From NCBI GenBank assembly GCA_023137195.1, contig JAGLPV010000042.1, forward strand, positions 1 to 32,743: a stretch of 32,743 nt of DNA. Reading direction: 5' to 3'. Of this stretch, positions 5,689 to 32,723 are shown in pieces (position 1 is the stretch's first letter; every line of letters begins with the position of its first letter). This DNA is from Candidatus Aenigmatarchaeota archaeon. GTDB lineage: Archaea; EX4484-52. Under the pieces are notes generated by a model. It was not told the DNA's origin. It did no database searches and worked only from the letters and a program-made list of their open reading frames with translations. The translations under genes were made by a program, and so were the position numbers.

Positions 5689-6045
5689 ATGAACATAATA
5701 GAAGAAAAGCTGACAACAAACACCCAAACATTAAAAATTTTAGAAGACCGGGAAAAAAATCAGGAAAATCCATTAAGCAGGATGCAGATGATAAGCCTGG
5801 ATTTTTTAAAAAAAGCAACAGAAAAATTAAAGGCAAAAGAAGAAAACGGAATAATAGAAAAATTAAAATCAGAAGTTCCGGTGCTTAAGGAAAATCACAT
5901 TATTGCCATTTTGAACTGCCCTCCAAAAGACGAGGAAGACGTAGATGTACTTTTTTCCAAGGAAAGACTTAGCCTCGAAAAAGATTCAGCAGCAAAAATC
6001 GTAGAAATCGTGAAGCCTTTTTTTATAGAGATAAAAAAGAAATAA
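5689..6045 (+). CDS. rpoF: DNA-directed RNA polymerase subunit F (Rpo4)
   Basis: Size and pattern (IIEEK.., LSxxQxxxLDF, IxNxxPxDxEDVxVLFSKER, KIVEIV) fit Rpo4, though the sequence is divergent. Confidence 0.75.
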   Translation: MNIIEEKLTTNTQTLKILEDREKNQENPLSRMQMISLDFLKKATEKLKAKEENGIIEKLKSEVPVLKENHIIAILNCPPKDEEDVDVLFSKERLSLEKDSAAKIVEIVKPFFIEIKKK

Positions 6046-6348
6046 TTTTTTAGTTTATGAAAAGTTTGCTCTTTGGCAAACTTTGACCGAACAAATTAAA
6101 GTATTTATCATAAAAAACACAGAAGTAACTAAAATACATTTCCTGTGAGTCATTCAATGAAAGCAAATGTGCAGAAAATCATAGAGATTTTCTTGTTGTG
6201 TATAAACAATATATCCTGTGCAAATTTAGACACAACACAATAAAAGAGTCTTACACCAAATACTTCTTTTAATATTGTACTCCGAGTATAATACGACACT
6301 TTCATACTTTGGGCACAATGAATAAATCCTACACATTATAAAAAGAAT

Positions 6349-6473
6349 TAAATCCGCAGGATTTTTGCTTGCATTATTACATCCAATCTTTTATTGATAA
6401 TCTCGTGAAAATCTGTGTTAATCTCGTGGATTAAACCAGTTCCTGTAGGTTCCGTGCGTTCCTGTGGATTAAA
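6349..6473 (+). repeat. Intergenic palindromic repeat family, copy 1
   Basis: AATCTCGTGAAAATCTGTGTTAATCTCGTGGATTAAA (6399-6435) followed by TTCCGTGCGTTCCTGTGGATTAAA. Degenerate left arm AAATCCGCAGGATT. Confidence 0.85.
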
Positions 6474-6479
6474 TGGGCT

Positions 6480-6695
6480 TTATTTTTTCTCTGCCTTCTC
6501 AACACTAGCTTTTTCGTTCAGAACAACAATATGCGCAATATTAGTTTTCTTAACTTTTGTATTCTCGCCTAATTTGTACGTAACTTCTACAAAATTATTA
6601 TCCAGTATTTTTGTTATCTCTCCTTTCATTCCTGCAAATCGACCAGCAAGTCGGACACAGATTCTGCCTGTTTCTGTTATTTTTGCTTCACTCAT
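6480..6695 (-). CDS. rpl14e: 50S ribosomal protein eL14 (L14e)
   Basis: KOW-type motif GRICVRLAGRFAG...ILDNNFVEV...NIAHI. ATG at 6695 preferred. Confidence 0.8.
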   Translation of the reverse strand: MSEAKITETGRICVRLAGRFAGMKGEITKILDNNFVEVTYKLGENTKVKKTNIAHIVVLNEKASVEKAEKK

Positions 6696-7914
6696 ATATC
6701 TCACCTTTTTGTTTCTTTTCTATTTTCTTTTGGGGTTTCCAGTTTGCTTTTTTGTATTCTTCTATAATTTTTTCATATGTTTTTTTCGTTGTACTGGCAA
6801 TAACATTCCAGTTATATAATGTATTTACCTTTAAAAAACCATTCTCTATCATATCGTTTTTCAATTCTTTATTTGTCAGGATACTTATGACGCCGTCTGC
6901 AATTTCATCAGAATTTTCTACAGCGACCTTGTATGCACACCCGTCAGCAACTTCACAAAGACCACCTGCGCTTGCAACCACGACCGGTGTCTTTGCAGCC
7001 ATCGCCTCCAGTGCAACAATCCCGAATGGCTCATATCTTGAAGGTACAACTACAACATCTGCAATACTGTAAAGAGCATCAACATCCTTATCATCCAGGT
7101 AACCGGAAAAATAGACTTTATCTCTTACCCCCAGACCATGAGCAATATCCATGCACTTGTTTTTCATATATCCTTTCCCGACAAATACAAATTTAGCTTC
7201 AGGAACTTTTGATATTATCTTTGGCGCGGCACCAATCAACAAGTCCACGCCCTTCTCCCAGACCAGCCTTCCCACGAACAAAACAATTTTCTCAAAAGGC
7301 ATTGCAAATTTCATTTTAACGCTTTCATAATCAAAACTCAAATCATATTTCTCAGGGTATATCCCGTTAGGGATTACATCTATTTTATTTTCCGGCGTGT
7401 GGAAGCAGCTGCATATCGAATTTTTCATGAAATAAGAGCAGACTATCGTTCTCCAGCTTTCATAGACTAATCTTCGCTCAAGATCATCAATAAGTCTTTC
7501 TCTGTCCTGACGTACAGCTCCCCGCCTTCCGATTTCCATAGAATGGATGGTTGCAACCATAGGCACGCGATACATATGCTTTATAGATATAGCACTTGTC
7601 GCAGAAAGCCAGTCATGGGTGTGCAGTAAATCTATTTTGAATTTGTCAAATATCTTTATAATCTGGTTCTCCATCAACAAGTTCATCTCAAGAACCCATG
7701 TAGGAAAATCCTCTGCAGGAATATTATCTGCATTGAACCTGAAAATATGCACCCCGTCTTTTTCTTCATATCCTTCCTTGCCACAAAAAGAACAGGTGAC
7801 AACAATAGGAGTTAACCCAACCTTTACCTGGGCTTTTGTTAAATCTTCAACATGCGCCGCAATCCCCCCAACTTTAAAAGGAGGAAATTCCCAGGTAAGA
7901 TGCAAAACATTCAT
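6688..7914 (-). CDS. GT4 family glycosyltransferase (glycogen-synthase-like)
   Basis: Motifs WEFPPxxVGG, HTHDW, FVGRLVWEKG and PSRYEPFGIVALEAMA. Confidence 0.9.
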   Translation of the reverse strand: MNVLHLTWEFPPFKVGGIAAHVEDLTKAQVKVGLTPIVVTCSFCGKEGYEEKDGVHIFRFNADNIPAEDFPTWVLEMNLLMENQIIKIFDKFKIDLLHTHDWLSATSAISIKHMYRVPMVATIHSMEIGRRGAVRQDRERLIDDLERRLVYESWRTIVCSYFMKNSICSCFHTPENKIDVIPNGIYPEKYDLSFDYESVKMKFAMPFEKIVLFVGRLVWEKGVDLLIGAAPKIISKVPEAKFVFVGKGYMKNKCMDIAHGLGVRDKVYFSGYLDDKDVDALYSIADVVVVPSRYEPFGIVALEAMAAKTPVVVASAGGLCEVADGCAYKVAVENSDEIADGVISILTNKELKNDMIENGFLKVNTLYNWNVIASTTKKTYEKIIEEYKKANWKPQKKIEKKQKGEIYE

Positions 7915-8034
7915 AATCAAAAATGAATGTTATATTTAAAAGCATATAGTTGAAAATCAAATCTACATTTTTCAAGTGCAGAGAAATACAAAACAGAATC
8001 AACTATTTTTAAACATTCAATACAATGAGTAACT

Positions 8035-8652
8035 ATGATATCAACACAGGAAATGTACAAAATAGACAGGCATATCCAGTCGCTTGGAATCCCCGCCCAA
8101 ATACTCATGGAAAACGCAGGAGCAAACTCAGCGAGAATAGTCAATGAAAGATACGATTTAAAAAACAAAAACATTCTGGTGTTCACAGGAACAGGCAACA
8201 ACGCAGGCGATGGATTTGTTTTCGCAAGACACGCCCAAAAATACGGCGCAAACGTAACAGTTTTTCTTGCAAAACCGCCGGAAAATATAAGAACAGAAGA
8301 AACAAGAACAAATTATAATATTGCAAAAAATATAGGAATAGAAATCTGCGTAAGCACAATTCCCCAAAACATATTAAACAACACAGATATTGCCTGTGAT
8401 GCATTACTGGGAATTGGATTAAAGGATAATGTAAAAGAGCCGTACAGGAAAATAATAGAAATTTTCAATAGTCTTGAATGTGCAAAAATATCTCTTGACT
8501 GCCCGAGCGGGATAAATGCAGATACTGGGAAAACGCGCGGTGTCGCAGTCAGGGCGGATATGACGATAACATTCTATGATGCAAAAAAAGGACTTGACAA
8601 ATCAAATTCCGGCGAAATTATAGTGACGGATATGGGAATAAGAAATGGTTGA
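8035..8652 (+). CDS. nnrE: NAD(P)HX epimerase (stand-alone YjeF N-terminal domain)
   Basis: Motifs LMENAG, GTGNNAGDG, DALLGIG and SLDCPSG. Confidence 0.9.
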   Translation: MISTQEMYKIDRHIQSLGIPAQILMENAGANSARIVNERYDLKNKNILVFTGTGNNAGDGFVFARHAQKYGANVTVFLAKPPENIRTEETRTNYNIAKNIGIEICVSTIPQNILNNTDIACDALLGIGLKDNVKEPYRKIIEIFNSLECAKISLDCPSGINADTGKTRGVAVRADMTITFYDAKKGLDKSNSGEIIVTDMGIRNG

Positions 8653-8665
8653 GTTGAATGGCGGA

Positions 8666-8805
8666 ATGTCATATAACATATACCGATCTGTGATGTTTGC
8701 CGAAGGCAAATTTGGATGGAGCGTAGTGAAATCGTATATCTGCTGTTATGTTCTCATCCGAAGGATGACGAGGAGCAAGCGACGAAGAGTCGGACGGAGG
8801 CGGAT
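8666..8805 (-). repeat. attC-like/dif-like hairpin site A
   Basis: On +: TTTGCCGAAGGCAAATTTGG stem-loop, the unit AAATCGTATAT-CTGCTG-TTATGTTCTCA (8729-8756), and GAGGAGCAAGCGACGAAG, which resembles the matching segment of site B. Confidence 0.7.
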
Positions 8806-10118
8806 TATCACTTTTATGGAAATTATTTTATTTCTTGAGAGATTTTTTCTCTTATTTTTTTAGTGCCTATGCTGAGTAAAGGTAATAAAATTATCAAAGA
8901 ACATATTACAATGAGAATTGAAATTAAATAAAGAGTTACAATTTCTAATTTAAATATTTGTGATAGAAGCAAAGCACTTAACACCCCCATACTTTGAACC
9001 ATCCAAAATAAAGCAGTCAAAAACTCAAGATTATATTCTGTAGTTACATCTCCGACCAAAGCATAAGTTATCGGTTTTATAATTGCCCAATTTAATGCAA
9101 GTAAAACAATACCTGAAATTAAAAATATGGTCTTTGATGAAAGAGATAAAAATACGAGGCCAATTAAAAGCAAAATATATGAAAAAATAATCATAATTCT
9201 CCTCCCTTTTATATCTGATAATTTTCCAAAATAATAGGAAAGAAAAAGGGGCAGAATATAGAATAAAGAAGATAGAACTCCAATATATGATATGCCAAGG
9301 ACATTTTTAATTTCAAGTGGGATTACACCAATCACAAGACCATAAACAAAAGTAGTAGCAAACCAAAGACTAGATAATTTCAATGCGGTTGTACTTGTAA
9401 TAGACTTTTTAATAAGTCTGAAATGGTTTATTTCTTGTTTTGCTTTTAAATCTCTCAACCCGAATAATAATAGAAAACCGAGTATGGGAAAAATAGAAAA
9501 AATTATAAAAGAGGCATTGAACAGAAAAACCGAGATAAAAACACCCAAAATAAAAACACCCAATGCAGAACCCAAAGATTGGAAAGAAGCAAAAAATCCT
9601 GAGTTTGTTCCATAGCAACTCTTATCACTCGCCCTTATCAAATAACTATTCTGTCCTGTCCAAAGTAAAGAGGCGGCAATACCAAGTAAAGAAGAACTAA
9701 AGTAAATCAAAACAGTAGATTTGCTCAATAATGAAAGGATAAATATCGAATAAAATACTGAAGATATAATCATACATCTCTTTGCTCCATATTTTGAAAC
9801 AAATAACGCAGATAGAGGATAAAACAAAATAAAAAACAGATAAATTAAAATTAAAGATTGAAAACCCAAATCAATTGCTCCGATATCAGAAAAGAATGTT
9901 GTAATATATTGTTGCACACCATTAAAACCAAGAAATATTAAAAGGAAGCTCAAACTTAATAATTTAACTTCTTTACTTATAGAAAATTTCATATTCATAA
10001 TTAAGATATTGATATTTTATATAATTTTCTAAATACCGCCGCCGTAGCCTGATTGAATATATTTGGTGTCCTGAGAAGTTTTTTCTGAAAAAAAATTTGG
10101 CGCAGCCTCTGGACATAA
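8677..10118 (-). mobile_element. Putative gene cassette A carrying the MFS gene
   Basis: The gene is followed by the hairpin site at 8666-8805. The cassette start on the minus strand, TTATGTCCAGA (10118-10108), matches the inner arm TTATGTTCTCA (8746-8756) at 8/11 positions. Confidence 0.55.
8823..9998 (-). CDS. MFS transporter (UNC-93-like)
   Basis: About 12 TM segments, MFS motif A-like GKLSDIKGRR, and LLWTGQNSY. Confidence 0.85.
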   Translation of the reverse strand: MNMKFSISKEVKLLSLSFLLIFLGFNGVQQYITTFFSDIGAIDLGFQSLILIYLFFILFYPLSALFVSKYGAKRCMIISSVFYSIFILSLLSKSTVLIYFSSSLLGIAASLLWTGQNSYLIRASDKSCYGTNSGFFASFQSLGSALGVFILGVFISVFLFNASFIIFSIFPILGFLLLFGLRDLKAKQEINHFRLIKKSITSTTALKLSSLWFATTFVYGLVIGVIPLEIKNVLGISYIGVLSSLFYILPLFLSYYFGKLSDIKGRRIMIIFSYILLLIGLVFLSLSSKTIFLISGIVLLALNWAIIKPITYALVGDVTTEYNLEFLTALFWMVQSMGVLSALLLSQIFKLEIVTLYLISILIVICSLIILLPLLSIGTKKIREKISQEIK

Positions 10119-10199
10119 TAGTATTATTACTTAAGTCATGATACCACACCAATACAGCACATTACACCAACATTTAATTACAATACACCAAACTAATTT

Positions 10200-10991: not shown

Positions 10992-11150
10992 TAATCTCGT
11001 AGTTATCCACAAGATTCTGGCGATTAACACAAGATTAAAATAAAAATAAAATCTCGTGAAAATCTGTGTAATCTGTGGATTAAACAAGTTCCCGTGTCTT
11101 CCCGTGCGTTCCGTGGATTAAACTAACTTTCCCATGTTTCCGTGGATAAA
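10992..11150 (+). repeat. Intergenic palindromic repeat family, copy 2 (longest)
   Basis: ATCCACAAGATT..TTAACACAAGATT, an A-rich loop, AATCTCGTGAAAATCTGTGTAATCTGTGGATTAAA, then two TTCCGTGGAT(T/A)AAA modules. Confidence 0.88.
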
Positions 11151-22458: not shown

Positions 22459-24213
22459 ATGGACAATACAAATAAAATTTTTGCATTTTTTATGCTGATT
22501 GCAATTTTAATGACATCAGGATGCTCAGATAATTTGCAGGAAATAAAAGAGAAGATTGACGACTGGAAATATGATTCACAGGCAAGTTCAGATGGGATTT
22601 CAAAAGGATTGGGCGGACTAAGTAATATAGGTTCAATGAAGTCAATGGCTGTCTCAGAATCAATGGCTGCATCAGGAGGAAACCTGGGATTCTCAACAGG
22701 AGGCGCAAAAGACATCAACAATTTCCGACAAAACATAAACAACAGCTATCTGCCGATATCTACGGACATAACATACGAAGGCTTATTTTACGACTATTAT
22801 TTTGACACAGGTCAGACAGAAGAATGCACAGAATTATTCTGCCCTTCTTACACTTACTCAATTTCCAAAGACCCTTTTTCCAACAAGGAAGAATATTACC
22901 TGTCTGTTGGATTGAATTCAGGCATAAAAGAAAGTGATTTCCAAAGGAAAAAACTAAACCTCGTTATTGTACTGGACATTTCAGGTTCAATGGGTTCGTC
23001 TTTCAACAGGTATTATTACGACCAGTTCGGCAGTAGAAGGACAAACGAACAAACAGAAGAAGAGGACAACGAGGATTACCATAAAAACAAGATGCAGATT
23101 GCATCAGAAGCAGTTGTGGGACTCATGGATCATCTAAACGACGACGACAGGTTCGGTATGGTGCTTTTTGACAGCAGTGCAGAATTGGCAAAACCATTGA
23201 GTCTTGTAGGAGAAACAGACATGCAGAAAATAAAAGACCACATCCTGGAAATTCATTCAAGAGGCGGGACACAAATGTCTGCCGGCATGAAGATGGGCAC
23301 AGAACAATTCAACGAGTTGACAGACATAAACCCTGACGAATACGAAAACAGGATAATATTTTTGACAGATGCAATGCCAAACATAGGAGAGACCAGCGAG
23401 CAAGGTCTTCTTGGCATGACCAATAAAAATTCACAAAACGGAATTTATTCAACTTTCATCGGCATCGGTGTTGATTTCAACACAGAATTGATAGAATACA
23501 TAACAAAAATAAGAGGAGCAAATTATTATTCCGTGCATAGCGCAAAAGAATTCAAGACCAGGATGGATGACGAATTTGAATACATGGTAACCCCATTAGT
23601 ATTTAATCTCCAGTTGACTCTGGATGCAGACGGCTACGAAATCCAAAAGGTTTACGGCTCCCCCGAAGCAGATGAAGCAACAGGAGAAATAATGAAAGTA
23701 AACACATTGTTTCCTTCAAAAGTAGAAGAAAACCAGACAAGAGGAGGACTAGTATTGTTGAAGCTAAAAAAATTATCACCAGATGCAAGCCTGAACCTTA
23801 AAGCAAGCTACGAAGACAGGAACGGAAAACCCGCGAATAATGAAAAAATCATTGAACTCGGAGACGAGGAAGCAGATTTTTACGAAAACACAGGAATCAG
23901 GAAAGGAATCCTCCTCTCCAGGTATGCAGACCTTATGAAAAACTGGATAAATGATGAAAGGCAAAGCTATTCAGACCCGGAACCAATACCACCATGCGTC
24001 AACAGAGAAATAGGAATAATCATACCTATGCCAATTGATCCACAGCTCGGAAAATGGGAACGCCAGTCAGTTACTCTCCAGGTTTCACAGCATTACAGGG
24101 ACTTGTTTGATGAGTTTAGCATTTACTTTGAGGAAGAGATGAACGCTCTTGAAGACGAGACTCTAAATCAGGAACTAGATGTATTAAGAACCCTTGCTGA
24201 GTACAGCAGCTAA
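22459..24213 (+). CDS. Secreted von Willebrand factor A domain protein
   Basis: Signal peptide ending TSGC, MIDAS DISGSM, GGT and FLTDAMPN. Confidence 0.88.
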   Translation: MDNTNKIFAFFMLIAILMTSGCSDNLQEIKEKIDDWKYDSQASSDGISKGLGGLSNIGSMKSMAVSESMAASGGNLGFSTGGAKDINNFRQNINNSYLPISTDITYEGLFYDYYFDTGQTEECTELFCPSYTYSISKDPFSNKEEYYLSVGLNSGIKESDFQRKKLNLVIVLDISGSMGSSFNRYYYDQFGSRRTNEQTEEEDNEDYHKNKMQIASEAVVGLMDHLNDDDRFGMVLFDSSAELAKPLSLVGETDMQKIKDHILEIHSRGGTQMSAGMKMGTEQFNELTDINPDEYENRIIFLTDAMPNIGETSEQGLLGMTNKNSQNGIYSTFIGIGVDFNTELIEYITKIRGANYYSVHSAKEFKTRMDDEFEYMVTPLVFNLQLTLDADGYEIQKVYGSPEADEATGEIMKVNTLFPSKVEENQTRGGLVLLKLKKLSPDASLNLKASYEDRNGKPANNEKIIELGDEEADFYENTGIRKGILLSRYADLMKNWINDERQSYSDPEPIPPCVNREIGIIIPMPIDPQLGKWERQSVTLQVSQHYRDLFDEFSIYFEEEMNALEDETLNQELDVLRTLAEYSS

Positions 24214-24347
24214 TCAGGGATAAAAGAAGTTGCCGAAGGCAATTTGGAAAAATGCCGAGCTGAGACATTTCATTTTATCCCTTGTTATACGAGGGCGAGG
24301 AGCGATAGTGACGAAAGCACAGCGTCTCTTCAAGTAGCCAGACGGAT
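24211..24347 (-). repeat. attC-like/dif-like hairpin site B
   Basis: On +: TAA-TCAGGG-ATAAAAGAAGT, TGCCGAAGGCAATTTGG, TTTCATTTTAT-CCCTTG-TTATACGAGGG, then GAGGAGCGATAGTGACGAAAG. Confidence 0.8.
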
Positions 24348-24969
24348 TTAATTTTCACTAATTAACCAAAAACCGCCGCTTTTTTCTTTTCCATGATATT
24401 CCATGGCATCAATTAATTTTTTTAGTTCAACTTTTCTTAATTTAGGCACATCTTTTCCAGGATCTATTAAAGAAACAATATTATTTTCAATTCCTTGAAT
24501 CAAAGAAACATGTCCGCAATCTCCTTTTCCATACAATTTTTCATTATTGAAACATACAATAATGTCATTATTCTTTCTGATATTTGAAATAATGAATTCT
24601 TTGACATCAGAAATATCTTTGACAAAAAAATATATTTCTTTGAGATTAATATTATTTTTCTGAAAATAATTATTTATTGAATATTGTTTCTTTCCGACCT
24701 GTGTACCATATCCCTCAATTGGCTTTTTGCCAGTTCTGACTTTTGTGTAAAGATGTACCTTTTCTTTTGGAACAGTTAAACCAAAATCATATCCTATTTC
24801 ATCTTGTGTGCCATGGAATATTTTTCTTCTGTCTAAAATCATAGAAATGCATGTTGGAACACAACAATATGGTTTTTGATCAAGTGATTTGTAAGGCGGT
24901 TTTTGGTTCATGTCTATTTGAAATTATACTAAGTTTATATACATTTCGAGTGAGGACTATTTCGTATAA
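24214..24969 (-). mobile_element. Putative gene cassette B carrying the peptidase-like gene
   Basis: Hairpin site at 24211-24347 downstream of the gene. The far end ATTTCGTATAA (24959-24969) supplies the arm complementary to the inner arm TTATACGA (24285-24292). TAAT is present at both junctions. Confidence 0.75.
24348..24911 (-). CDS. Papain-like/C39-like cysteine peptidase domain protein
   Basis: Q-x3-CC nucleophile region (DQKPYCCVPTCISMIL), GHVSLI and LIDP give the Q/C/H/D order of C39-like peptidases. Confidence 0.65.
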   Translation of the reverse strand: MNQKPPYKSLDQKPYCCVPTCISMILDRRKIFHGTQDEIGYDFGLTVPKEKVHLYTKVRTGKKPIEGYGTQVGKKQYSINNYFQKNNINLKEIYFFVKDISDVKEFIISNIRKNNDIIVCFNNEKLYGKGDCGHVSLIQGIENNIVSLIDPGKDVPKLRKVELKKLIDAMEYHGKEKSGGFWLISEN

Positions 24970-24990
24970 TATCCTAGAGACAGAATCGTT

Positions 24991-25113
24991 TAAATCCACA
25001 AGATTCTTACGATTAACACAGATAAAGATAATCTCGTGAAAATCTGTGTAATCTGTGGATTAAAATCACTTTCCTGTTGGTTCCGTGGGTTCCGTGTTTT
25101 CCGTGGATTAAAA
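24991..25113 (+). repeat. Intergenic palindromic repeat family, copy 3
   Basis: TAAATCCACAAGATT..TTAACACAGAT, AATCTCGTGAAAATCTGTGTAATCTGTGGATTAAA, then TTCCGTGGGTTCCGTGTTTTCCGTGGATTAAA. Confidence 0.88.
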
Positions 25114-25148
25114 TGAATATATTTAAATGTTAACACAAAATAAGTTAT

Positions 25149-26000
25149 ATGAAAAAAACATACGTATTCACAATATTATCAATATTGCTTTTAACTTCAG
25201 GATGCACCACCACCAATGTAGTACAGACCCCGGGTGGCGTCGACATTCTTGATTTTTCTCCGCTCCCGGATACAGTCTATAGCGGCGAAGAAGCAAAGCT
25301 GATTTATGAAATCCAGAACAATGGAGCGTATGATTCCAATATTGAAGTATATCTTGAAAAAATAGACACAGACAAATGGAGTGCAACAGAGACATCCACA
25401 ACAATAAGCAGTCTTCCAAAAAAACAACAAAAGGTAGAAGGAGGAAAAGAAATAGGTTTTTTTAGCATAACCGCCCCGGAAATAGACAAGAATACAAGGC
25501 AGATATTCAATGCAGAATTGAAGATGTGTTATTTATACAAAACACAAACAGTATTCAAATACGACATTACAAACTCTTTTGAAAAACAAAAGAAAATAGA
25601 ACAGGGAACATACGCCAGAAAAATACCCTTTTACAGGAATTCCATATCTCCCTTGCTGGTAGAACCTCTTACAAAAGAGCCCCTTTACGGCGGGAAAGAT
25701 GAAGTGACGCTTTCATTCAGAGTAAAAGACCACGAGAGAGGAATGCTTATAAATTCAAACACATGCGTGCAAAACCCGGATGCAGGAGAATTCAATAATT
25801 ACCAGTATACTCTGACCTCACCGGATGCAGGTATTACAATAACATGCGATGAAGACACAGTCCGTCTGGTGGATGGCATCTCAATCTTTTACTGCACATT
25901 AAGCGGCATAAGCGGGAAAACTTCCGTTACCTTGACAATGACATCAGAGTATGCTTATTACCAGTCAAAGAGTACGAGAATAACTGTTAACGGGATTTGA
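25149..26000 (+). CDS. Secreted/surface hypothetical protein (beta-rich)
   Basis: Signal peptide ending LTSGC, beta-strand pattern (YEIQNNG, CYLYKT) and several cysteines. Confidence 0.75.
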   Translation: MKKTYVFTILSILLLTSGCTTTNVVQTPGGVDILDFSPLPDTVYSGEEAKLIYEIQNNGAYDSNIEVYLEKIDTDKWSATETSTTISSLPKKQQKVEGGKEIGFFSITAPEIDKNTRQIFNAELKMCYLYKTQTVFKYDITNSFEKQKKIEQGTYARKIPFYRNSISPLLVEPLTKEPLYGGKDEVTLSFRVKDHERGMLINSNTCVQNPDAGEFNNYQYTLTSPDAGITITCDEDTVRLVDGISIFYCTLSGISGKTSVTLTMTSEYAYYQSKSTRITVNGI

Positions 26001-26034
26001 TTAATTTTTAAGAAAATATAGTATATTAGATATT

Positions 26035-27825
26035 ATGGACAACATAAGAATTGCAGTAGTGAACAAAAAAAAATGCACCCCAAAAAGATGCGCCCACGAG
26101 TGTTATAATTTTTGTCCGAAAGTAAGAGCAGGAGCAAGCACAATAAAAGTAGGAACCAAATGCATTGAAATCACAGAAGACCTGTGCATCGGTTGCGGTA
26201 TTTGTGTAAAAAAATGCCCGTTCAAAGCAATATCCATAGTAAATTTATCATGCGACTTAGGCAGTGTCGTCCATCAATACGGCAAAAACACATTCAGGTT
26301 ATACAATCTTCCAATGCCCAGGAAAGGAGATATCGTCGGTCTGATTGGTCAGAATGCAATCGGAAAGACAACAACTATAGAGTTGTTTTCAGGAAGCGAA
26401 ATCCCGAACATGGGAGAATATGACCAAAAAACAACAAAGGAAGAAAAATACGACAAATTAATAAAAACATACAGGGCAAGTTCCCTGCATAATTTTTTTT
26501 CAGAACTCAAAAAAAATAAGATAACTTCCGCCTACAAACCCCAGAAAATAGACAGGTTGGTCGCCACATTTGACAGCAAAGACACAGTTGGAGATGTTAT
26601 CAAAAAAACAAAACTAAATGAAAAAAAAGTAATTGACTTGCTAAAGGACATAAACAATGATGATGCAGACAGCGATTTTCTGGATAAAAAAGCAAAGAAT
26701 TTGAGCGGTGGAGAAGTCCAAAAACTGGCAATTGCAATAACTCTTTGCAAGGACAGGGACATTTATTTTTTTGACGAACCCTCGTTATATTTAGACATCT
26801 ACAACCGATTAAGCGTTGCAAGACACATAAAAAAATTAAAAGAAAAAGATGCGTATTGTTTTGTCGTAGAGCACGACCTTGCAATCGTAGATTATATGTG
26901 CGATTATGTCCACATGTATTTTGGAAAGCAGGGAGTTTACGGCGCAGTTTCAGACCCATATTCAGCAAACCAGGGAATCAACACATACCTGAGTGGATAT
27001 TTAAAAGACAAGAATATCCGCTTCCGTGACAAGGCACTTGTCTTTGATTTCACTTCGCAAAAAACAGTTTCAGAAAAAGTTGTTTTCAAATATCCTTCAT
27101 TCACAAAAAAATACACAGGATTCAATCTCAAATGCGAGGGAGGAACACTTAACGAAGGAGAAGTTGTAGGAATTTTCGGCGCAAATGCGCTCGGGAAAAC
27201 CACATTCGCAAAAATACTTGCAGGAGTTGAAAAGAGCGACGAGAAAGTAAAACTAAAAACCAAGATATCCTACAAGCCACAATATTTAGAAAGCGATTTT
27301 AAAGGAAAAGTAGAGGATATAATTTATTCTTCGGACTGCCAGATGAAGGATTTCATGGAAATATCCCAGCACCTGAGAATCGGAGACATTCTTCAAAGGC
27401 AGGTCGCAACATTGAGCGGAGGAGAATTGCAGAGACTCGCAATCGCAATTTGCATGAGCAGGGATGCAGACATCTATCTCCTGGATGAGCCGAGTGCTTA
27501 CTTGGATGTTGAAGAAAGAGTCAGGCTGTCAAGAATCATAAGAGACATAACCCAGCTAAAACTAAAATCCACTCTGGTAATAGACCACGACATGATTTTT
27601 CTGAACTATACTGCCGACAAATCCATAGTATTTACCGGCAAGAGTGGAAAGAGCGGTTTTGCAGATAAACCAAAAGACCTTTATGCTGGATTCAACAGGT
27701 TTTTGAGCGAGTTAAACATAACCTTCCGGCTGGACAAGGAAACAAAAAGACCAAGAGCAAACAAGGAAAATTCCCAGAGAGATAGGACACAAAAAGAAAA
27801 AGGACAATATCTTGCTTTGGAATGA
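26035..27825 (+). CDS. abce1: Ribosome recycling ATPase ABCE1 (RLI)
   Basis: N-terminal Fe-S motifs (CxPxxCxxECxxxCP, CIGCGICVKKCP), two ABC domains, and C-terminal RPRANK. Confidence 0.96.
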   Translation: MDNIRIAVVNKKKCTPKRCAHECYNFCPKVRAGASTIKVGTKCIEITEDLCIGCGICVKKCPFKAISIVNLSCDLGSVVHQYGKNTFRLYNLPMPRKGDIVGLIGQNAIGKTTTIELFSGSEIPNMGEYDQKTTKEEKYDKLIKTYRASSLHNFFSELKKNKITSAYKPQKIDRLVATFDSKDTVGDVIKKTKLNEKKVIDLLKDINNDDADSDFLDKKAKNLSGGEVQKLAIAITLCKDRDIYFFDEPSLYLDIYNRLSVARHIKKLKEKDAYCFVVEHDLAIVDYMCDYVHMYFGKQGVYGAVSDPYSANQGINTYLSGYLKDKNIRFRDKALVFDFTSQKTVSEKVVFKYPSFTKKYTGFNLKCEGGTLNEGEVVGIFGANALGKTTFAKILAGVEKSDEKVKLKTKISYKPQYLESDFKGKVEDIIYSSDCQMKDFMEISQHLRIGDILQRQVATLSGGELQRLAIAICMSRDADIYLLDEPSAYLDVEERVRLSRIIRDITQLKLKSTLVIDHDMIFLNYTADKSIVFTGKSGKSGFADKPKDLYAGFNRFLSELNITFRLDKETKRPRANKENSQRDRTQKEKGQYLALE

Positions 27826-28031
27826 TTTTATTATTTTTAACTTCTTTTATCCATAATGTTAAATGAAATAATTTTTAGTGGCTCAGAATAGAAAGGGGGG
27901 CAATTCAAAAAAAACGGAGGGGCTAGTCCTAACAGACATTTACACTCACTTCGTTCGAAATCTATAAGGGTGTTCTTTAAAATAAAATCCTTTATAAAGA
28001 AGAGACAATATCTTATTTATGGGGCAATAAA

Positions 28032-29657
28032 ATGCATATAAAAGAAATCACAATTAAGAATTATAAATGTTTTAAAGGAACATTTCATTTAAAATTAAAT
28101 AAAAATACAAATATTCTTGTTGGAAATAATGAAGCTGGAAAATCAACAATTTTAGAAGCAGTTCATCTAACACTAACAGGGTTGATAAATGGAAAATACT
28201 TAAAAACAGAATTAACTCAACACCTTTTTAATAATGAAATTATTGAAGAATATTTAGAAAATATTAATAATACTAATTTGACTACAATACCATCATCACC
28301 CCCAGAGATTATAATAGAGCTTTTTATAGAAAGTGATGATTTATCTATTCTAGAAGGTAGCAAAAATAGTAAAAATAGAAAAGAATGTGGTTTATCATTC
28401 AAAATTAGTTTAAAGGATAATTTAAAAGAAGAATATGAGGAGTTAGTAAAATCGGGAAAAATTAAATCACTGCCCATAGAATATTATGATTTTTCATGGA
28501 CTTCCTTTGCAAGAGAATCTAAAACACCAAGAACAATACCTATAAAATCAGCATTAATAGATTCATCCAGTAATAGATATCTAAATGGATCAGACGTATA
28601 TATTTCTCGTATAGTTAAAGATTACTTGGATATTAAAGATATAATCAATATTTCTAAAGCTCATCGTAAATTAAAAGATGCTTTTTCAGAGGAACAGGCA
28701 ATTAAAGATATTAATAAAAAAATTCAAGATGCTTCAAAAATTTCTAATAAAAATATTGAATTGTCTGTTGACTTATCCACAAAAAATGCATGGGAAAATA
28801 GTTTAACAACTTATTTGGATAAAATTCCATTTCATTACATAGGTAAAGGAGAACAATGCATTATTAAAACTAATTTAGCTTTAAATCATAAAAAAGCTAC
28901 TGAAGCAAATATTTTATTATTAGAAGAACCTGAAAATCATTTATCTCACACTAAACTTAGTCAATTAATGAAAGATATTAAAGAAAAGAATGACAAACAG
29001 ATTATAATTTCTACTCACAGTAGCTATGTTGCAAATAAACTAGGATTAAATGAGCTAATTATTTTAAACAATCGTAAAACTACTTTATTGTCTAATTTAA
29101 GTAAAGACACACAATTATTCTTTGAAAAATTGTCTGGATACAATACTTTAAGATTTGTTCTTTGTAAAAAAGCAATTCTGGTTGAAGGAGATTCAGATGA
29201 ATTAATTGTACAAAAAGCATATCTGAATAGTAATAATGGAAGATTACCTATCGAAGATGAAATTGATGTAATATCCGTTGGATTATCTTTTAAGAGATTT
29301 TTAGAAATTGCACAGAAGATTCAACAACAAGTAAGGGTTGTTACTGATAACGATGGAAATTATGATGATAATATTACAAAAAAATATGAATCTTACAATG
29401 ATTGTCAATCAATTATGATCTGTGCTGATTCAGATAACTCATTAAATAGCCTTGAACCTCAAATCGTAGATATAAATGATTTAACTATTTTGAGAACGGT
29501 ATTAGGAATAACTTCTGAAAAATATCCAGATAAAAGTGCAATTGTGAAGTATATGGAAAACAATAAAACAAAATGTGCATTAAAAATATTTGATACTGAT
29601 GAAAATATAAAGTTTCCACAATATGTCTTGGATGCGATAAATGATGAATATGAGTGA
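28032..29657 (+). CDS. gajA: OLD-family ATP-dependent TOPRIM nuclease (Gabija GajA-like)
   Basis: Walker A GNNEAGKS, Walker B LLLEEPENHL, STHS, and TOPRIM motifs LVEGDSD and DND. Confidence 0.85.
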   Translation: MHIKEITIKNYKCFKGTFHLKLNKNTNILVGNNEAGKSTILEAVHLTLTGLINGKYLKTELTQHLFNNEIIEEYLENINNTNLTTIPSSPPEIIIELFIESDDLSILEGSKNSKNRKECGLSFKISLKDNLKEEYEELVKSGKIKSLPIEYYDFSWTSFARESKTPRTIPIKSALIDSSSNRYLNGSDVYISRIVKDYLDIKDIINISKAHRKLKDAFSEEQAIKDINKKIQDASKISNKNIELSVDLSTKNAWENSLTTYLDKIPFHYIGKGEQCIIKTNLALNHKKATEANILLLEEPENHLSHTKLSQLMKDIKEKNDKQIIISTHSSYVANKLGLNELIILNNRKTTLLSNLSKDTQLFFEKLSGYNTLRFVLCKKAILVEGDSDELIVQKAYLNSNNGRLPIEDEIDVISVGLSFKRFLEIAQKIQQQVRVVTDNDGNYDDNITKKYESYNDCQSIMICADSDNSLNSLEPQIVDINDLTILRTVLGITSEKYPDKSAIVKYMENNKTKCALKIFDTDENIKFPQYVLDAINDEYE

Positions 29658-30786
29658 AAACAAATTAATTATTGCTGCTGCGGGTTCTGGAAAAACCACT
29701 TTTATTATCAATGAAGCATTAAAACAAACAGATAATGTATTAATAACGACATTTACAGAAGCAAACGAAAAAGAAATTAAAAATAAAATTATTAAGATTA
29801 AGAAATGTATTCCAGCAAATATAACTATCCAAACATGGTTCTCATTTTTATTACAGCATGGAGTAAGACCATATCAAGATTCATTAAATTCCGAATTATA
29901 TCATAAAAAAATAGGATTTTATCTTACGGAAAGACCTTCAGGATATAGATTTACTAACAAATTCAAACAACCTGTTTATTGGGGAGAAAAAGATTTTTTC
30001 AATTATTATTTTGATAAAAAATTTAAAATATATTCAGATAAGATTTCTAAATTTATAATTGAATCAGATAAGAAAACAAATGGAAAAATATTTAATAGAA
30101 TTTCAAAAATATATAAACATATTTTTATTGATGAAGTACAAGATTTAGCAGGTTGGGATTTAGAAATTTTAAAATCATTATTTAAGATTTCATCTAATAT
30201 ACTCTTAGTTGGCGATCCAAGACAAGTTACTTACTTAACACATCATCCTAAAAAATATGCAAAATACAAAAATGGTCAAATTATTGATTTTATTAAAAAT
30301 GAATGCACAAAAGACATCTGCAATATAGATTTAGACAACCTAAATAAATCACATAGAAATAACAAGGAAATTTGTTATTATTCTTCAAAATTATTCCCTG
30401 ATTTTAATCCATGTTTAGCCTGTACTTGTGCTAAATGTAGGGAGCAAAACACAGACCATGAAGGTGTATTTTTTGTTAAAAAAGAAGATGTTGAAAAATA
30501 TTTTAAAAAATATTCACCAACGATATTGAAACCAAAATCTGCTATTTATCCTGAATGGAACTATGGAAAATCAAAAGGTTTAACTTTTGATAGAGTCCTT
30601 ATATATCCAACAAGTCCAATTATTAAATGGATTGGAAATAATGATGAAGATTTACCGCCAACAAGTCGCTCTAAATTTTATGTTGCTTTAACCAGAGCCA
30701 AACACAGTGTGGCAATAATTTATAATTATGTTAAGGAAGATAATCTTGACGGAATTCAGAAATGGGAGAATATAGAAATGAAATGA
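29650..30786 (+). CDS. gajB: UvrD-like helicase (Gabija GajB-like)
   Basis: Motifs AAAGSGKT, DEVQD, VGDPRQ, KGLTF and YVALTRAK. Overlaps the gajA stop. Confidence 0.85.
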   Translation: MSENKLIIAAAGSGKTTFIINEALKQTDNVLITTFTEANEKEIKNKIIKIKKCIPANITIQTWFSFLLQHGVRPYQDSLNSELYHKKIGFYLTERPSGYRFTNKFKQPVYWGEKDFFNYYFDKKFKIYSDKISKFIIESDKKTNGKIFNRISKIYKHIFIDEVQDLAGWDLEILKSLFKISSNILLVGDPRQVTYLTHHPKKYAKYKNGQIIDFIKNECTKDICNIDLDNLNKSHRNNKEICYYSSKLFPDFNPCLACTCAKCREQNTDHEGVFFVKKEDVEKYFKKYSPTILKPKSAIYPEWNYGKSKGLTFDRVLIYPTSPIIKWIGNNDEDLPPTSRSKFYVALTRAKHSVAIIYNYVKEDNLDGIQKWENIEMK

Positions 30787-30973
30787 TGTATTCAATAATT
30801 TAATAGAACGCCTTAAATGTTCTTTTAAAAAAAGAACCAAAAAGCCCCTCCTAAAAAACAAAAAAGAATTGTTCCCTAGACTTGTTCTTGCTGTGTCGCA
30901 TTCGCTCATTTGATAGAACGCCACTAAAAATTACTCTGCGGTTTGCTTCGCAAATCCTCAGGACGGCTTGCAG

Positions 30974-31076
30974 CCTTTCGTTTCGCTCACCCTTCTCATT
31001 TAATAAGGATTATGAGGAAAATCTGCTGTTCCCAATCGCCTACGGCGAACTTCTCATAATCCTGATTATACAAAAC
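30974..31076 (+). repeat. attC-like/dif-like hairpin site C
   Basis: TTCTCATTTAA-TAAGGA-TTATGAGGAAA, CCCAATCGCCTACGGCGA, then ACTTCTCATAA-TCCTGA-TTATACAAAAC. Confidence 0.8.
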
Positions 31077-31132
31077 TCTAACCCAATCTAAAAACAAATA
31101 TGTTTAAATAAATATGAGGATTTATCATAGAT

Positions 31133-31600
31133 ATGAAATACACAATAGAACAAATTGGGATAATCCACAGTCCATATAAAACAAAAGAGGAATGTCCTAT
31201 TCAAGGCAATGTAAATCCCGAAGGGAAAGGACAAATAGAATTATTTACAGAATATGAAGAAGGATTAGAAACAATTGAGACATTTTCACATATTATGCTG
31301 TTTTATATTTTTGATAAAGCCGGCGAAATAAAATTAGCCCGTCCAACATTTTTAGATGATTCTCCACATGGCGTTTTTGCTTCCAGGCATCCTTGTAGAC
31401 CAAACAGCATCGGCATCTCAATTGTAAAACTAGAAAAAAGAAACAAAACTATTATGGTAGTATCAGGAATAGACGTTCTCGACAAGACCCCTCTAATTGA
31501 TATTAAACCATACATCTTCAGATTTGATCATTTTGATAACGCAAATAACGGATGGGCAGAGACAAAAAAAATCCGTCCAAAACCAAAGGCAATAGAATAA
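31133..31600 (+). CDS. tsaA: tRNA m6t6A37 methyltransferase TrmO/TsaA family
   Basis: Motifs IGIIHSPY, GVFASRHPCRPNSIG and TPLIDIKPY. Confidence 0.9.
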   Translation: MKYTIEQIGIIHSPYKTKEECPIQGNVNPEGKGQIELFTEYEEGLETIETFSHIMLFYIFDKAGEIKLARPTFLDDSPHGVFASRHPCRPNSIGISIVKLEKRNKTIMVVSGIDVLDKTPLIDIKPYIFRFDHFDNANNGWAETKKIRPKPKAIE

Positions 31601-31604
31601 AACC

Positions 31605-31726
31605 AAGACTGTACTTTCACTCTATCACTCCGTTTACCCCCACCCTACAACAAAAGACAAATTACTTAAATCACAATTTCCCAATTATTCACTGCATTCA
31701 CAAAACACATTTTATCTCTGGGGTTA
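31605..31726 (+). repeat. Decayed hairpin site D downstream of tsaA
   Basis: CTGTACTTTCACTCTATCACTCC, TACAA-CAAAAG-ACAAAT, TTTCCCAATT and CATTTTAT-CTCTGGGG-TTA are collinear with the minus strand of site B. Confidence 0.45.
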
Positions 31727-31846
31727 AGGTTTTATTGTTCGTTGCTTGTAAAAAACAATTACAACAACCAAACTGTTGTTTAATACAACCCAGGAATTAA
31801 TAAATATAAAAAGCTACTTTCAAATAAACTTCTATGGGGTTGTAAA

Positions 31847-32650
31847 ATGGAAGAGAAAAAATTACTAAAAGCAATGGGATTAAACAATTACGAAACAGCA
31901 GTTTATCTCAAACTGGCAGAATTCAACACAGCAGAAGCCGGGAAATTATGCAAGGAATCAGGAGTTCCTTTCGGCAGAATCTACGAAGTATTGAACTCTT
32001 TGGAAAAAAAAAGTTTGGTCGACATAGAATATACAAGACCAAAAAAATACACAATCAAAAGACCAAAAACAGCATTCATCAACATACTAAAAAACAAAAG
32101 ACAGGCAATGGAAACAGAATTTCAAAAAACAGCAGAGACCATTTGCCGGATAGAAAACAAAATATTAAACCACGCACCCGAAGACACATTAAAAGAAAAA
32201 CCCCATTGGACAACAGCAGGAAAAGAGGAAATCGAAGAGATGACAATAAGCAATTTTGACGAAGCAAAAGAAAACCTTTTCGTAATGCTAAAAAACAACA
32301 CACCTGTAAAAATACAGGATCCCTTAAAACACACACTAATTGCATTGGCAGACGCCATAAAAAGAGGCGTTAAAGTAAGACTGCTCGTCGGCAATGGCTT
32401 TTCCATTCCAGAGGACAACATACAAAAAAAACACATAAAACAAGTATTCACCCACGCCGAAGTCAGATTCTACCACAGGATAAGATATTATTTTGACATA
32501 GCGGATATTGACAAGGTAATCCTAAAAATAAACAACCCCGTAAATGAAAGACAACTAATCGCCGCCATAAAAACCACAGACGCCGAGTTAGCAGGAGAAT
32601 TAAAAAAAAAATTTAGAGCGATGTGGATAAGAGCAAAAAAACTAAATTAA
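31847..32650 (+). CDS. TrmB family transcriptional regulator
   Basis: wHTH GLNNYETAVY...SGVPFGRIYEVLNSLEKK...RPKKY, followed by a PLD-like effector domain (KRGVKVRLL). Confidence 0.88.
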   Translation: MEEKKLLKAMGLNNYETAVYLKLAEFNTAEAGKLCKESGVPFGRIYEVLNSLEKKSLVDIEYTRPKKYTIKRPKTAFINILKNKRQAMETEFQKTAETICRIENKILNHAPEDTLKEKPHWTTAGKEEIEEMTISNFDEAKENLFVMLKNNTPVKIQDPLKHTLIALADAIKRGVKVRLLVGNGFSIPEDNIQKKHIKQVFTHAEVRFYHRIRYYFDIADIDKVILKINNPVNERQLIAAIKTTDAELAGELKKKFRAMWIRAKKLN

Positions 32651-32652
32651 AA

Positions 32653-32723
32653 AAATCCACAAGATTATGGCGATTAACACAAGATTAAAATAAAAATAAA
32701 ATCTCGTGGAAATCTATGTAATC
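32653..32723 (+). repeat. Intergenic palindromic repeat family, copy 4 (interrupted)
   Basis: 32655-32723 matches 11005-11073 at 66/69 nt by manual count, then the similarity stops abruptly. Confidence 0.9.

Follow-up and report, generated by a model that had tools for sequence, protein, structure and literature searches.

We examined a hairpin site at 30993-31076 of a stretch of archaeal DNA of 32,743 nucleotides (the window), which is the entire 32.7-kb contig C37 of a metagenome-assembled genome (MAG) of Candidatus Aenigmatarchaeota archaeon. The MAG comprises 1.42 Mb in 57 contigs and is 85% complete, and its order belongs to the DPANN archaea. Searches covered this genome together with 41 relatives of the same order, a set of 42 genomes of which 10 are at least 90% complete. 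Below, G000 is the genome under study, other G numbers are relatives from the order and C numbers are contigs. The sequencing runs that contain the window DNA are cold-seep metagenomes.

The contig carries housekeeping genes, including those for ribosomal proteins, aCPSF1, Cbf5, glyA, ABCE1 and tRNA-Arg. Between ABCE1 (26035-27825) and a TrmO-like gene (31133-31600; TrmO_N, 128 bits) lies a block of 25-28% G+C in surroundings of ~35-39%. It holds two genes on the + strand: gajA (28032..29657; G+C 0.25-0.27), which encodes an OLD-family ATPase/nuclease with AAA_15 and OLD TOPRIM domains (PADLOC GajA, 689 bits over its full length), and gajB (29641..30786), which encodes a UvrD-like helicase (PADLOC GajB, 442 bits, full length). 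The hairpin site is placed between gajB and the TrmO-like gene. We conclude, with a probability of roughly 70%, that it is the recombination site of an integron-like cassette system run by XerA-type recombinases, and we consider it equally probable that it closes a mobile cassette of ~3.2 kb (27859-31065) whose cargo is the Gabija pair gajA-gajB.

Architecture of the hairpin site and its family

The site is built from two units, which read on the + strand as TTCTCATTTAA-TAAGGA-TTATGAGGAAA (unit 1, 30993-31020) and ACTTCTCATAA-TCCTGA-TTATACAAAAC (unit 2, 31049-31076). The initial annotation had described such sites as paired inverted 11-6-11 units, and both direct reading and an inverted repeat confirm this here: 31001-31016 and 31053-31068 are 94% complementary over 16 nt and, spaced by 36 nt, form a 16-bp hairpin. 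Both units can be written as 11-6-11 with ATAA and TTA(T/A) borders; the arms are poorly symmetric within a unit, and the symmetry between units is good. Unit 1, the cassette-proximal half of the site, consists of an outer box ATTTAAT (30998-31004), a spacer AAGGA and an inner box TTATGAG (31010-31016). In unit 2 the inner box CTCATAA (31053-59) is followed by the spacer TCCTGA (31060-65), the predicted crossover at 31065|31066 and then TTATAC of the next segment. A variable loop (31021..31048, -) separates the units and contains a mini-hairpin at 31037-47, whose - strand reads CGCC-GTA-GGCG and thus presents a G-N-A triloop. Covariance models delimit the whole site at 30996..31075 (-), the - strand being the folding ('bottom') strand of the family. 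Folded as single-stranded DNA, the + strand reaches -13.0 kcal/mol (z -4.52; 0/200 shuffles equal it) and the - strand -12.4 kcal/mol (z -3.42; 1/200 shuffles equal it). At 80 nt, with outer and inner boxes, spacers of 5-6 nt and a variable centre, the site has the layout of an integron attC site and lies within its size range (55-140 nt). The AAC...GTT core of attC is absent from 30993-31076, where AAT...ATT stands in its place; both sides of the core have changed, C to T and G to A, so that the pair is kept. Rfam at its gathering threshold matched only the tRNA-Arg in the window and left the hairpin site unmatched.

A motif scan and folds show that the site shares a common frame with 8670-8753, 24204-24292 and sites on other contigs, the frame lying on the - strand at 30993-31076. 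It runs from outer box, spacer and inner box through GAAGTT, a mini-hairpin, AATTTGG and a variable part to the second inner box, spacer and outer box. RNAalifold on eight sites of the host genome finds 19 pairs, 11 of them with compensatory changes. We built one covariance model from host-genome sites (R1) and a second from 49 sites of other genomes only (R2). Across these 49 sites 92.5% of cells are paired, against 67.2% in shuffles and 23-55% in slid controls, the underlying alignment having been fitted to the covariance model. Since 17 of the 19 pairs vary on both sides across the 49 sites, the structure is conserved by compensatory changes. The loop mini-hairpins co-vary as well, with 9/10 pairs changing on both sides, and one G.T pair is invariant (49/49). 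G-N-A occurs on the same strand in 42 of the 50 triloops, and the GAAGTT strand is the more stable one in 45/49 sites (mean -15.0 vs -13.2 kcal/mol). Stability, the invariant G.T pair and the G-N-A triloops together indicate that the GAAGTT strand corresponds to the integron 'bottom' strand.

In the host genome R1 detects 11 sites at E ≤ 1e-3 and 16 at E ≤ 1, scoring 62.5 bits on the site at 30993-31076. With filters off, R2 gives this site 41.4 bits (E 2.2e-6) and finds three strong sites and one weak site in the window, and nothing else. Sites at E ≤ 1e-3 are present in 27 of the 41 relatives' genomes. These sites differ from dif, a single-copy chromosomal site, in their 11-16 copies per host genome and their position at cassette ends. 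In about 47 of the 49 relatives' sites the two ends read ..TAAC and TGTTA, which are canonical AAC...GTT cores. The initial annotation had proposed an A|TTA junction; it stands for 30993-31076 and for 24204-24292, where an empty site and a circular box match agree with it, and it fails for the family at large. Nor could we uphold the view that the sites resemble Xer/dif more than attC, given the full attC layout (7-bp boxes, 5-6 nt spacers, variable loop) and the AAC...GTT cores of the family. Two inverted 'simple sites' are the classical description of attC, so that the Xer-pair and attC descriptions are not mutually exclusive.

Predicted cassette boundaries and absence of cassettes from related strains

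For the Gabija cassette we predict a left crossover at ATAATG|TTAAAT (27858|27859) and a right crossover at CCTGA|TTATAC (31065|31066). When these ends are joined into a circle, A31065 and the TTAAAT that comes next (27859-27864) make up ATTAAAT, which is perfectly reverse-complementary to the outer box ATTTAAT (30998-31004); in the linear DNA of the window the outer box pairs at only 5/7 positions. The left end of the insert (27840..27864, +) is a half site composed of AACTTC, the inner box TTTTATCC and the spacer ATAATG, followed by the cassette start TTAAAT. The half site proper (27840-27858) has a BLAST match to a sister site and stands alone, with no partner half.

Three further sites occur in the window. 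The sister site at 24204..24292, whose + strand is the folding strand, scores 71.1 bits with R1 and 55 bits with R2, folds, and begins at the stop codon of a vWA gene. It belongs to a sister cassette (24214..24969, -) that contains a single open reading frame (ORF; 24911..24348, 187 aa, weak Peptidase_C39_2 match) and its site, with the far junction at ATTTCGTATAA|T. Read as a circle, TCGTATAA|T of this cassette pairs with GTTATACGA (24284-24292), and it does so in the circular form only. Another sister site (8670..8753, +; R1 63.3 bits, R2 56 bits) follows a gene for a major facilitator superfamily (MFS) transporter (9998..8823, -; MFS_1), and the far junction of this cassette (~10003-10010) is a partial match only. 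A weak, possibly decayed site lies at 10053..10138 (+; R1 26.4 bits, E 0.013; R2 20.2 bits, E 0.064). The sites sit just past stop codons, and those of the window are solitary; arrays occur in relatives. The 8-mers GCGTATAA (27 occurrences vs 55 expected) and TCGTATAA (45 vs 101 expected) are not over-represented genome-wide, so that only their positions are informative.

We looked for cassette absence in Logan contigs of four runs from one study, one of which may be the source of the MAG. One contig of run X4 skips 24206-24977, joining 24205 to 24978 through 14 letters that are consistent with an empty site, ...GTAA|TACCC.... In this contig the sister cassette is thus missing exactly at the predicted TAA|T. 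The empty site agrees with a crossover in TAA|T on the folding strand, corresponding to A|TTA on its complement. At the Gabija locus a joint from 27839 to 31752, with 4 letters between, occurs in X3 (a 446-nt contig, 201 nt on its shorter side) and in X4 (74 nt). The region that is variable among related strains, 27840..31751 (+), therefore takes in the Gabija cassette, its site and the TrmO-like gene. Its left end lies 19 nt to the left of the predicted crossover, which places the half site 27840-27858 within the variable DNA. The earlier proposal that the sites are cassette ends is thus borne out by the presence/absence joints and by the box complementarity. In the two congeners that hold the end of the ABCE1 gene another gene comes next, and synteny yields no empty-site junction.

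Between gajB and the site lies a conserved, high-copy module of small GC hairpins (30896..30993, +), which has a depth of 140 vs ~14 in the metagenome contigs and exceeds the genome about tenfold in each of the four runs. Loose contig ends occur at 30993 in 4/4 runs, and past this point other copies of the module run into other sites beginning CATTTAAC. Loose ends also occur at 27856 in 3/4 runs; together these ends indicate that the left end of the cassette and the module both exist in other contexts. Tails resembling the module, at 8754-8800 and 24293-24345, come after the two strong sister sites. Immediately to the right of the joint at 31752, an 11-6-11-like palindrome, ATTACAACAAC-CAAACT-GTTGTTTAATA, lies at 31758-31786 in DNA retained by the insert-less strains, and it is a possible target site.

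A BLAST search of the genome with the intergenic sites returned mostly an unrelated dispersed repeat. The window contains a dispersed intergenic repeat (...aatctgtggattaaaat..., ttccgtgg units) at 24990-25110, 6396-6462, 11005-11122 and 32653-32723. This repeat, which is unrelated to the hairpin sites, is also present at the ends of contigs C28, C47, C57 and C22, reaches a depth of ~1000 vs 13 in the metagenome contigs, and forms a joint from 25058 to 32653.

XerA-type recombinases, cassette arrays and a candidate dif site

The host genome encodes two tyrosine recombinases, one at C1:6574-7434 and one on C45. Both pass the archaeal XerA model NF040815 (XerA_Arch; 257.7 and 224.5 bits, cut-off 220) and fall below the IntI cut-off of 265 of TIGR02249 (215.9 and 186.7 bits). 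Their matches to the IntI model are split in two and leave out positions ~180-237, as every match in the 42 genomes does, and none of these genomes encodes an IntI above the cut-off in a search run without a positive control. The C1 protein aligns in one piece with Pyrococcus abyssi XerA (4a8e, 3e-50) and in two pieces with IntI4 (VchIntIA, 2a3v), having 16 residues where IntI4 has 60, and it retains the catalytic R, K, HxxR, H and Y motifs. Neither an HUH (Y1) transposase nor a serine recombinase was found in the host genome.

Runs of sites on the same strand, spaced by 400-2000 bp, occur in relatives, with four sites in G001:C82, three in G001:C50, three to four in G001:C66, and four each in G029:C16 and G029:C10; G031:C188 and G021:C28 hold three sites each. 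In tight arrays each ORF lies opposite the GAAGTT strand, with its stop codon 27-183 nt from the site. The Gabija locus follows this arrangement: the folding strand is the - strand of the window, and gajA-gajB lie on the + strand, followed by their site. Most ORFs carried by arrays in relatives (23 of 32) are without a Pfam match; the others include GNAT, PNPOx, Ntn hydrolase, GmrSD and DNA methylases. Defence genes at sister loci encode restriction-modification, GmrSD and PDC-S37/Hhe-type helicase functions.

Two host loci carry further features of this kind. At L007 (G000:C1) a direct repeat of ~200 bp at 640-840 and 6300-6500 flanks a gene for a PDC-S37/Hhe-type helicase of 1602 aa. It has inverted boxes of its own, CTCTTAACC ... 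GGTTAAGAG, together with G-N-A mini-hairpins, and probably represents a second cassette-site family, one that both R1 and R2 miss. At L009 (G000:C45) a 1199-aa ORF (6024-9623, -) with no Pfam or PADLOC match sits beside two DNA methylase genes in a site-flanked island between purT and purD, which includes a further ORF read as a restriction enzyme.

A site lies no more than 6 kb away on the same contig for seven of 37 full-length recombinase genes and for one fragment. In five of these eight cases, the fragment included, the distance is at most 2.4 kb and the orientation is site-then-gene. As in an integron, the recombinase gene and the cassette ORFs are oriented divergently in G001:C82 and G001:C50. 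Contig ends come within 1 kb of 14 of the 37 genes, as though the assemblies were broken by adjoining repeats. In a quick tree clade X stands apart from clades Y, Z1, Z2 and W; it comprises 13 rows, one per genome, tracks taxonomy and includes the C45 gene. The recombinases that neighbour arrays belong to clades Y (three), Z2 (two), Z1 (one) and X (one), and sites are present in 14/15 genomes with a clade Y or Z gene vs 5/13 with only X or W. Relatedness and incompleteness of the genomes make these last counts only suggestive. The clade-Y genes of three genomes of the genus have directly upstream a compact hairpin of the form CATAAC-variable stem-(G/A/T)TTATAC, after which comes a TTTTATA box.

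We scanned the host genome for ATAA-N6-TTAT with inverted arms matching at no fewer than 9/11 positions and obtained five matches, one of which is not of low complexity. This candidate dif site, ATTGCGTATAA-TATACA-TTATACGCAAA (C45:31060-31087), lies directly upstream of the clade-X xerA gene. The palindrome also precedes xerA in G002 and G003, with 28/28 identity between G000 and G003, and is thus found directly upstream in 3/3 genomes of the genus that have the gene. A different 28-bp palindrome, (A/G)TGTCGCATAA-N6-TTATGCGAC.., occurs ~15-70 bp upstream of all five clade-W genes, at loci L107-L111 (G006, G026, G028, G024 and G018), and is likely the xerA/dif module of that family. The stretch of K-12 DNA that separates yneL from hipA contains the E. 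coli XerD arm quoted in the initial annotation, TTATGTTAAAT, once, as GGTGCGCATAA-TGTATA-TTATGTTAAAT; the feature table of the record gives it no dif label. The candidate dif matches the K-12 28-mer at 21/28 positions.

Comparison of this candidate with the arms of the sites was positive, with matches of up to 11/11. The left arm of the dif candidate matches the crossover end of host sites at ≥8/11 positions in 7/16 sites and at ≥9/11 in 4/16, against a background per 30-nt window of 0.035 and 0.004, respectively. Among sites of the same genus, 8/12 match at ≥8/11, two of them at 11/11. Three exact copies of the 11-mer exist in the genome, one each in the dif candidate, the compact site ahead of the C1 recombinase gene (C1:6515-6575) and a cassette site. 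The arms quoted in the initial annotation stand where it had placed them, ATTTCGTATAA at 24959-24969, TAATGTTAAAT at 27854-27864 and TTATGTTCTCA in the 3' box of 8670-8753. The arm at 24959 matches the dif arm at 10/11 positions, and it resembles the XerC arm of Acinetobacter pdif as the initial annotation gives it. The units of 30993-31076 match the dif candidate, itself a prediction, at 16-17/28 positions (unit 2 at 17/28), where random 28-mers average 8.65 matches and reach 16 or more with P = 0.002. A repeated element (ATTATGTAATT.GCGTATAATGATTTCTAT.CATTAAAAG) with a dif-arm core occurs at G000:C45:53144 and 53219, C39:63296 and C7:55018.

The site combines an attC-like architecture with dif-like arms. 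The two descriptions are compatible, because a folded attC imitates a core site, and what sets the present sites apart is the enzyme family and the dif-derived arm. The initial annotation had suggested that the cassettes use the host XerA or another recombinase that is not an IntI. This idea gains support from the XerA-type character of both host recombinases and from the arrays beside XerA-type genes. Its first alternative is narrowed by these results: a XerA-type enzyme agrees with them, and a duplicated paralogue beside the arrays would be a likelier candidate than the housekeeping XerA. We give slightly better than even odds to the clade-Y paralogue (C1:6574-7434) as the acting enzyme; the housekeeping XerA on C45 is possibly the enzyme.

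Proposed mechanism, rival explanations and known systems

In the mechanism that we propose, one strand, the - strand of the window, would fold, and its paired outer and inner boxes would mimic a dif-like core site. A XerA-family recombinase could then cut after TATAA at the arm/spacer border and exchange the cut strand with a partner site that has TAA(T/C) in common, and the product would be resolved by replication. On balance we regard recombination through a single strand as probable. More tentatively, at somewhat less than even odds, the system may be a gene-capture platform of DPANN archaea derived from xerA/dif, in which a duplicated XerA that has no IntI insert recombines folded half-dif hairpins and so spreads cassettes.

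Several observations weigh against this interpretation. At 30993-31076 itself the proposed folding strand is not the favoured one (-12.4 vs -13.0 kcal/mol). In none of the Logan contigs of the four runs is the Gabija cassette removed alone: the joint at 27839 lies 19 nt left of the predicted crossover, and the TrmO-like gene is removed too, with no significant fold (z -0.66) and no R1 or R2 site in its 3' flank (31600-31800). The joints come from one or two Logan contigs of one study, not from raw reads, and from strains that are ~95% identical. A mechanical count of ORF orientation is weak, with 19 ORFs opposite the folding strand, 14 on the same strand and one site without an ORF (34 sites), and this count is noisy because spurious ORFs are counted among some of the 'same' cases. 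Just 7/37 recombinase genes have a detected site inside 6 kb, and none was detected beside several clade-Y genes whose upstream DNA is intact (for example those of G036:C58 and G031:C137). The tree does not resolve W and X as one group, so that the division into a housekeeping enzyme and a cassette paralogue is a reading of it and not a result. The genomes are MAGs, of which the host is 85% complete and only 10/42 reach 90%, and counts across them are not independent, the genomes being related. Finally, the family cores are canonical AAC/GTT, so that an IntI supplied in trans could act on them.

This last point leads to an unlikely alternative, in which the sites are ordinary integron attC sites, the true IntI is unassembled, lost or provided by other organisms, and the XerA-type neighbours are bystanders. 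The canonical cores and attC box layout of the family consensus agree with it, and so does the incompleteness of the host MAG. Archaeal attC clusters were reported by Ghaly et al. 2022 (PMC9668308) and are interpreted there as integrons without integrases: six IntI are given there for 75 MAGs, most archaeal MAGs with attC clusters have no IntI, and two Aenigmatarchaeota MAGs have 4-5 attC and no IntI. Bacterial IntI1 can also recombine archaeal attCs, according to the same paper. Yet the lack of an IntI above the cut-off extends to the 10 genomes of at least 90% completeness, the arrays adjoin XerA-type genes with a compact site in between, and the crossover arm copies the host dif arm at up to 11/11 positions. 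The Aenigmatarchaeota attC given in Data S9 of PMC9668308 is GC-rich and of a different type.

We consider it just as improbable that the units are double-stranded dif-like sites on which XerA acts as duplex, the hairpin being a by-product of their inverted arrangement. Covariation runs between the units and not inside a unit, the arms within a unit are poorly symmetric, and the loop mini-hairpins co-vary at 9/10 pairs; moreover, one G.T pair is invariant and one strand is more stable in 45/49 sites, all of which argue against duplex units. For a duplex substrate speak the 11-6-11 form of each unit and its 16-17/28 match to the host dif candidate, the partnerless half site at 27840-27858, and the lack of a strand stability bias at 30993-31076. 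XerA acts on duplex dif (PMC2958812). A non-mobile structured repeat, such as a terminator, a small RNA gene or a REP-like selfish palindrome, would suit the positions just past stop codons and the high copy number of the module at 30896-30993, but is very unlikely: in tight arrays the upstream ORF runs antisense to the stable strand, which is therefore not the mRNA strand, presence/absence variants terminate at the boxes, the arrays stand beside recombinase genes, the site has no Rfam match, and no HUH/RAYT-type gene was found in the genome.

If the XerA-run cassette system is real, single-strand cassette recombination would be possible without the IntI insert. The extra helix of IntI is regarded as the innovation behind recombination of folded single strands (PMC7790495). 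The system would then be either a living model of the origin of integrons from Xer or an independent second invention. A cassette system run by plain XerA-type enzymes on a dif arm would widen the definition of the integron and offer a route to its origin, and may explain the shortage of IntI in archaeal attC clusters. It would also be a route for the exchange of defence systems, including Gabija, restriction-modification, GmrSD and the PDC-S37/Hhe-type helicase, among symbiotic archaea with very small genomes. In the open-access PMC and bioRxiv literature we found no paper that ties such arrays to XerA-type enzymes or to dif.

The sites and arrays resemble those of integrons in many respects. 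As in attC, an inverted repeat carries outer and inner boxes, short spacers and a variable loop, the structure is kept and the sequence is not, and the family has AAC...GTT cores; each site obtains the remainder of its outer box from the first six bases of its own cassette. The arrays share one orientation and carry mostly unknown ORFs and defence genes, and a site separates the cassette ORFs from the divergently oriented recombinase gene. Unlike in integrons, no recombinase with the IntI insert was found in the 42 genomes and the neighbours are XerA-type; the crossover arm is the host dif arm, and the recombinase-proximal site is itself a hairpin. The core at 30993-31076 is AAT...ATT, and the loop has a conserved GAAGTT...AATTTGG frame with G-N-A mini-hairpins.

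Other Xer-dependent systems offer partial parallels. The closest case among the mobile elements that exploit Xer (IMEX) is a filamentous vibriophage, whose folded single-stranded attP imitates dif. In Acinetobacter plasmids the pdif gene modules are bounded by inverted duplex 28-bp sites of Xer type, used by the bacterial XerC/XerD, and have no long co-varying hairpin. IMEX in general, which are treated in PMC5357621, are similar in that a Xer enzyme without the IntI insert would act on two inverted dif-like halves and in that integration uses a short common stretch at the arm/spacer border. IMEX are phages and islands at the chromosomal dif, whereas here cassettes without promoters are stacked at a dedicated platform that has its own recombinase paralogue, in an archaeal host. 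Single xer/dif modules, among them xerS-difSL, xerH-difH and some archaeal xerA/dif, are also described in PMC5357621, and the 28-bp palindrome directly upstream of the gene in clade X (3/3) and in clade W (5/5) resembles them. Those modules serve dimer resolution; here the arm is copied into many cassette ends.

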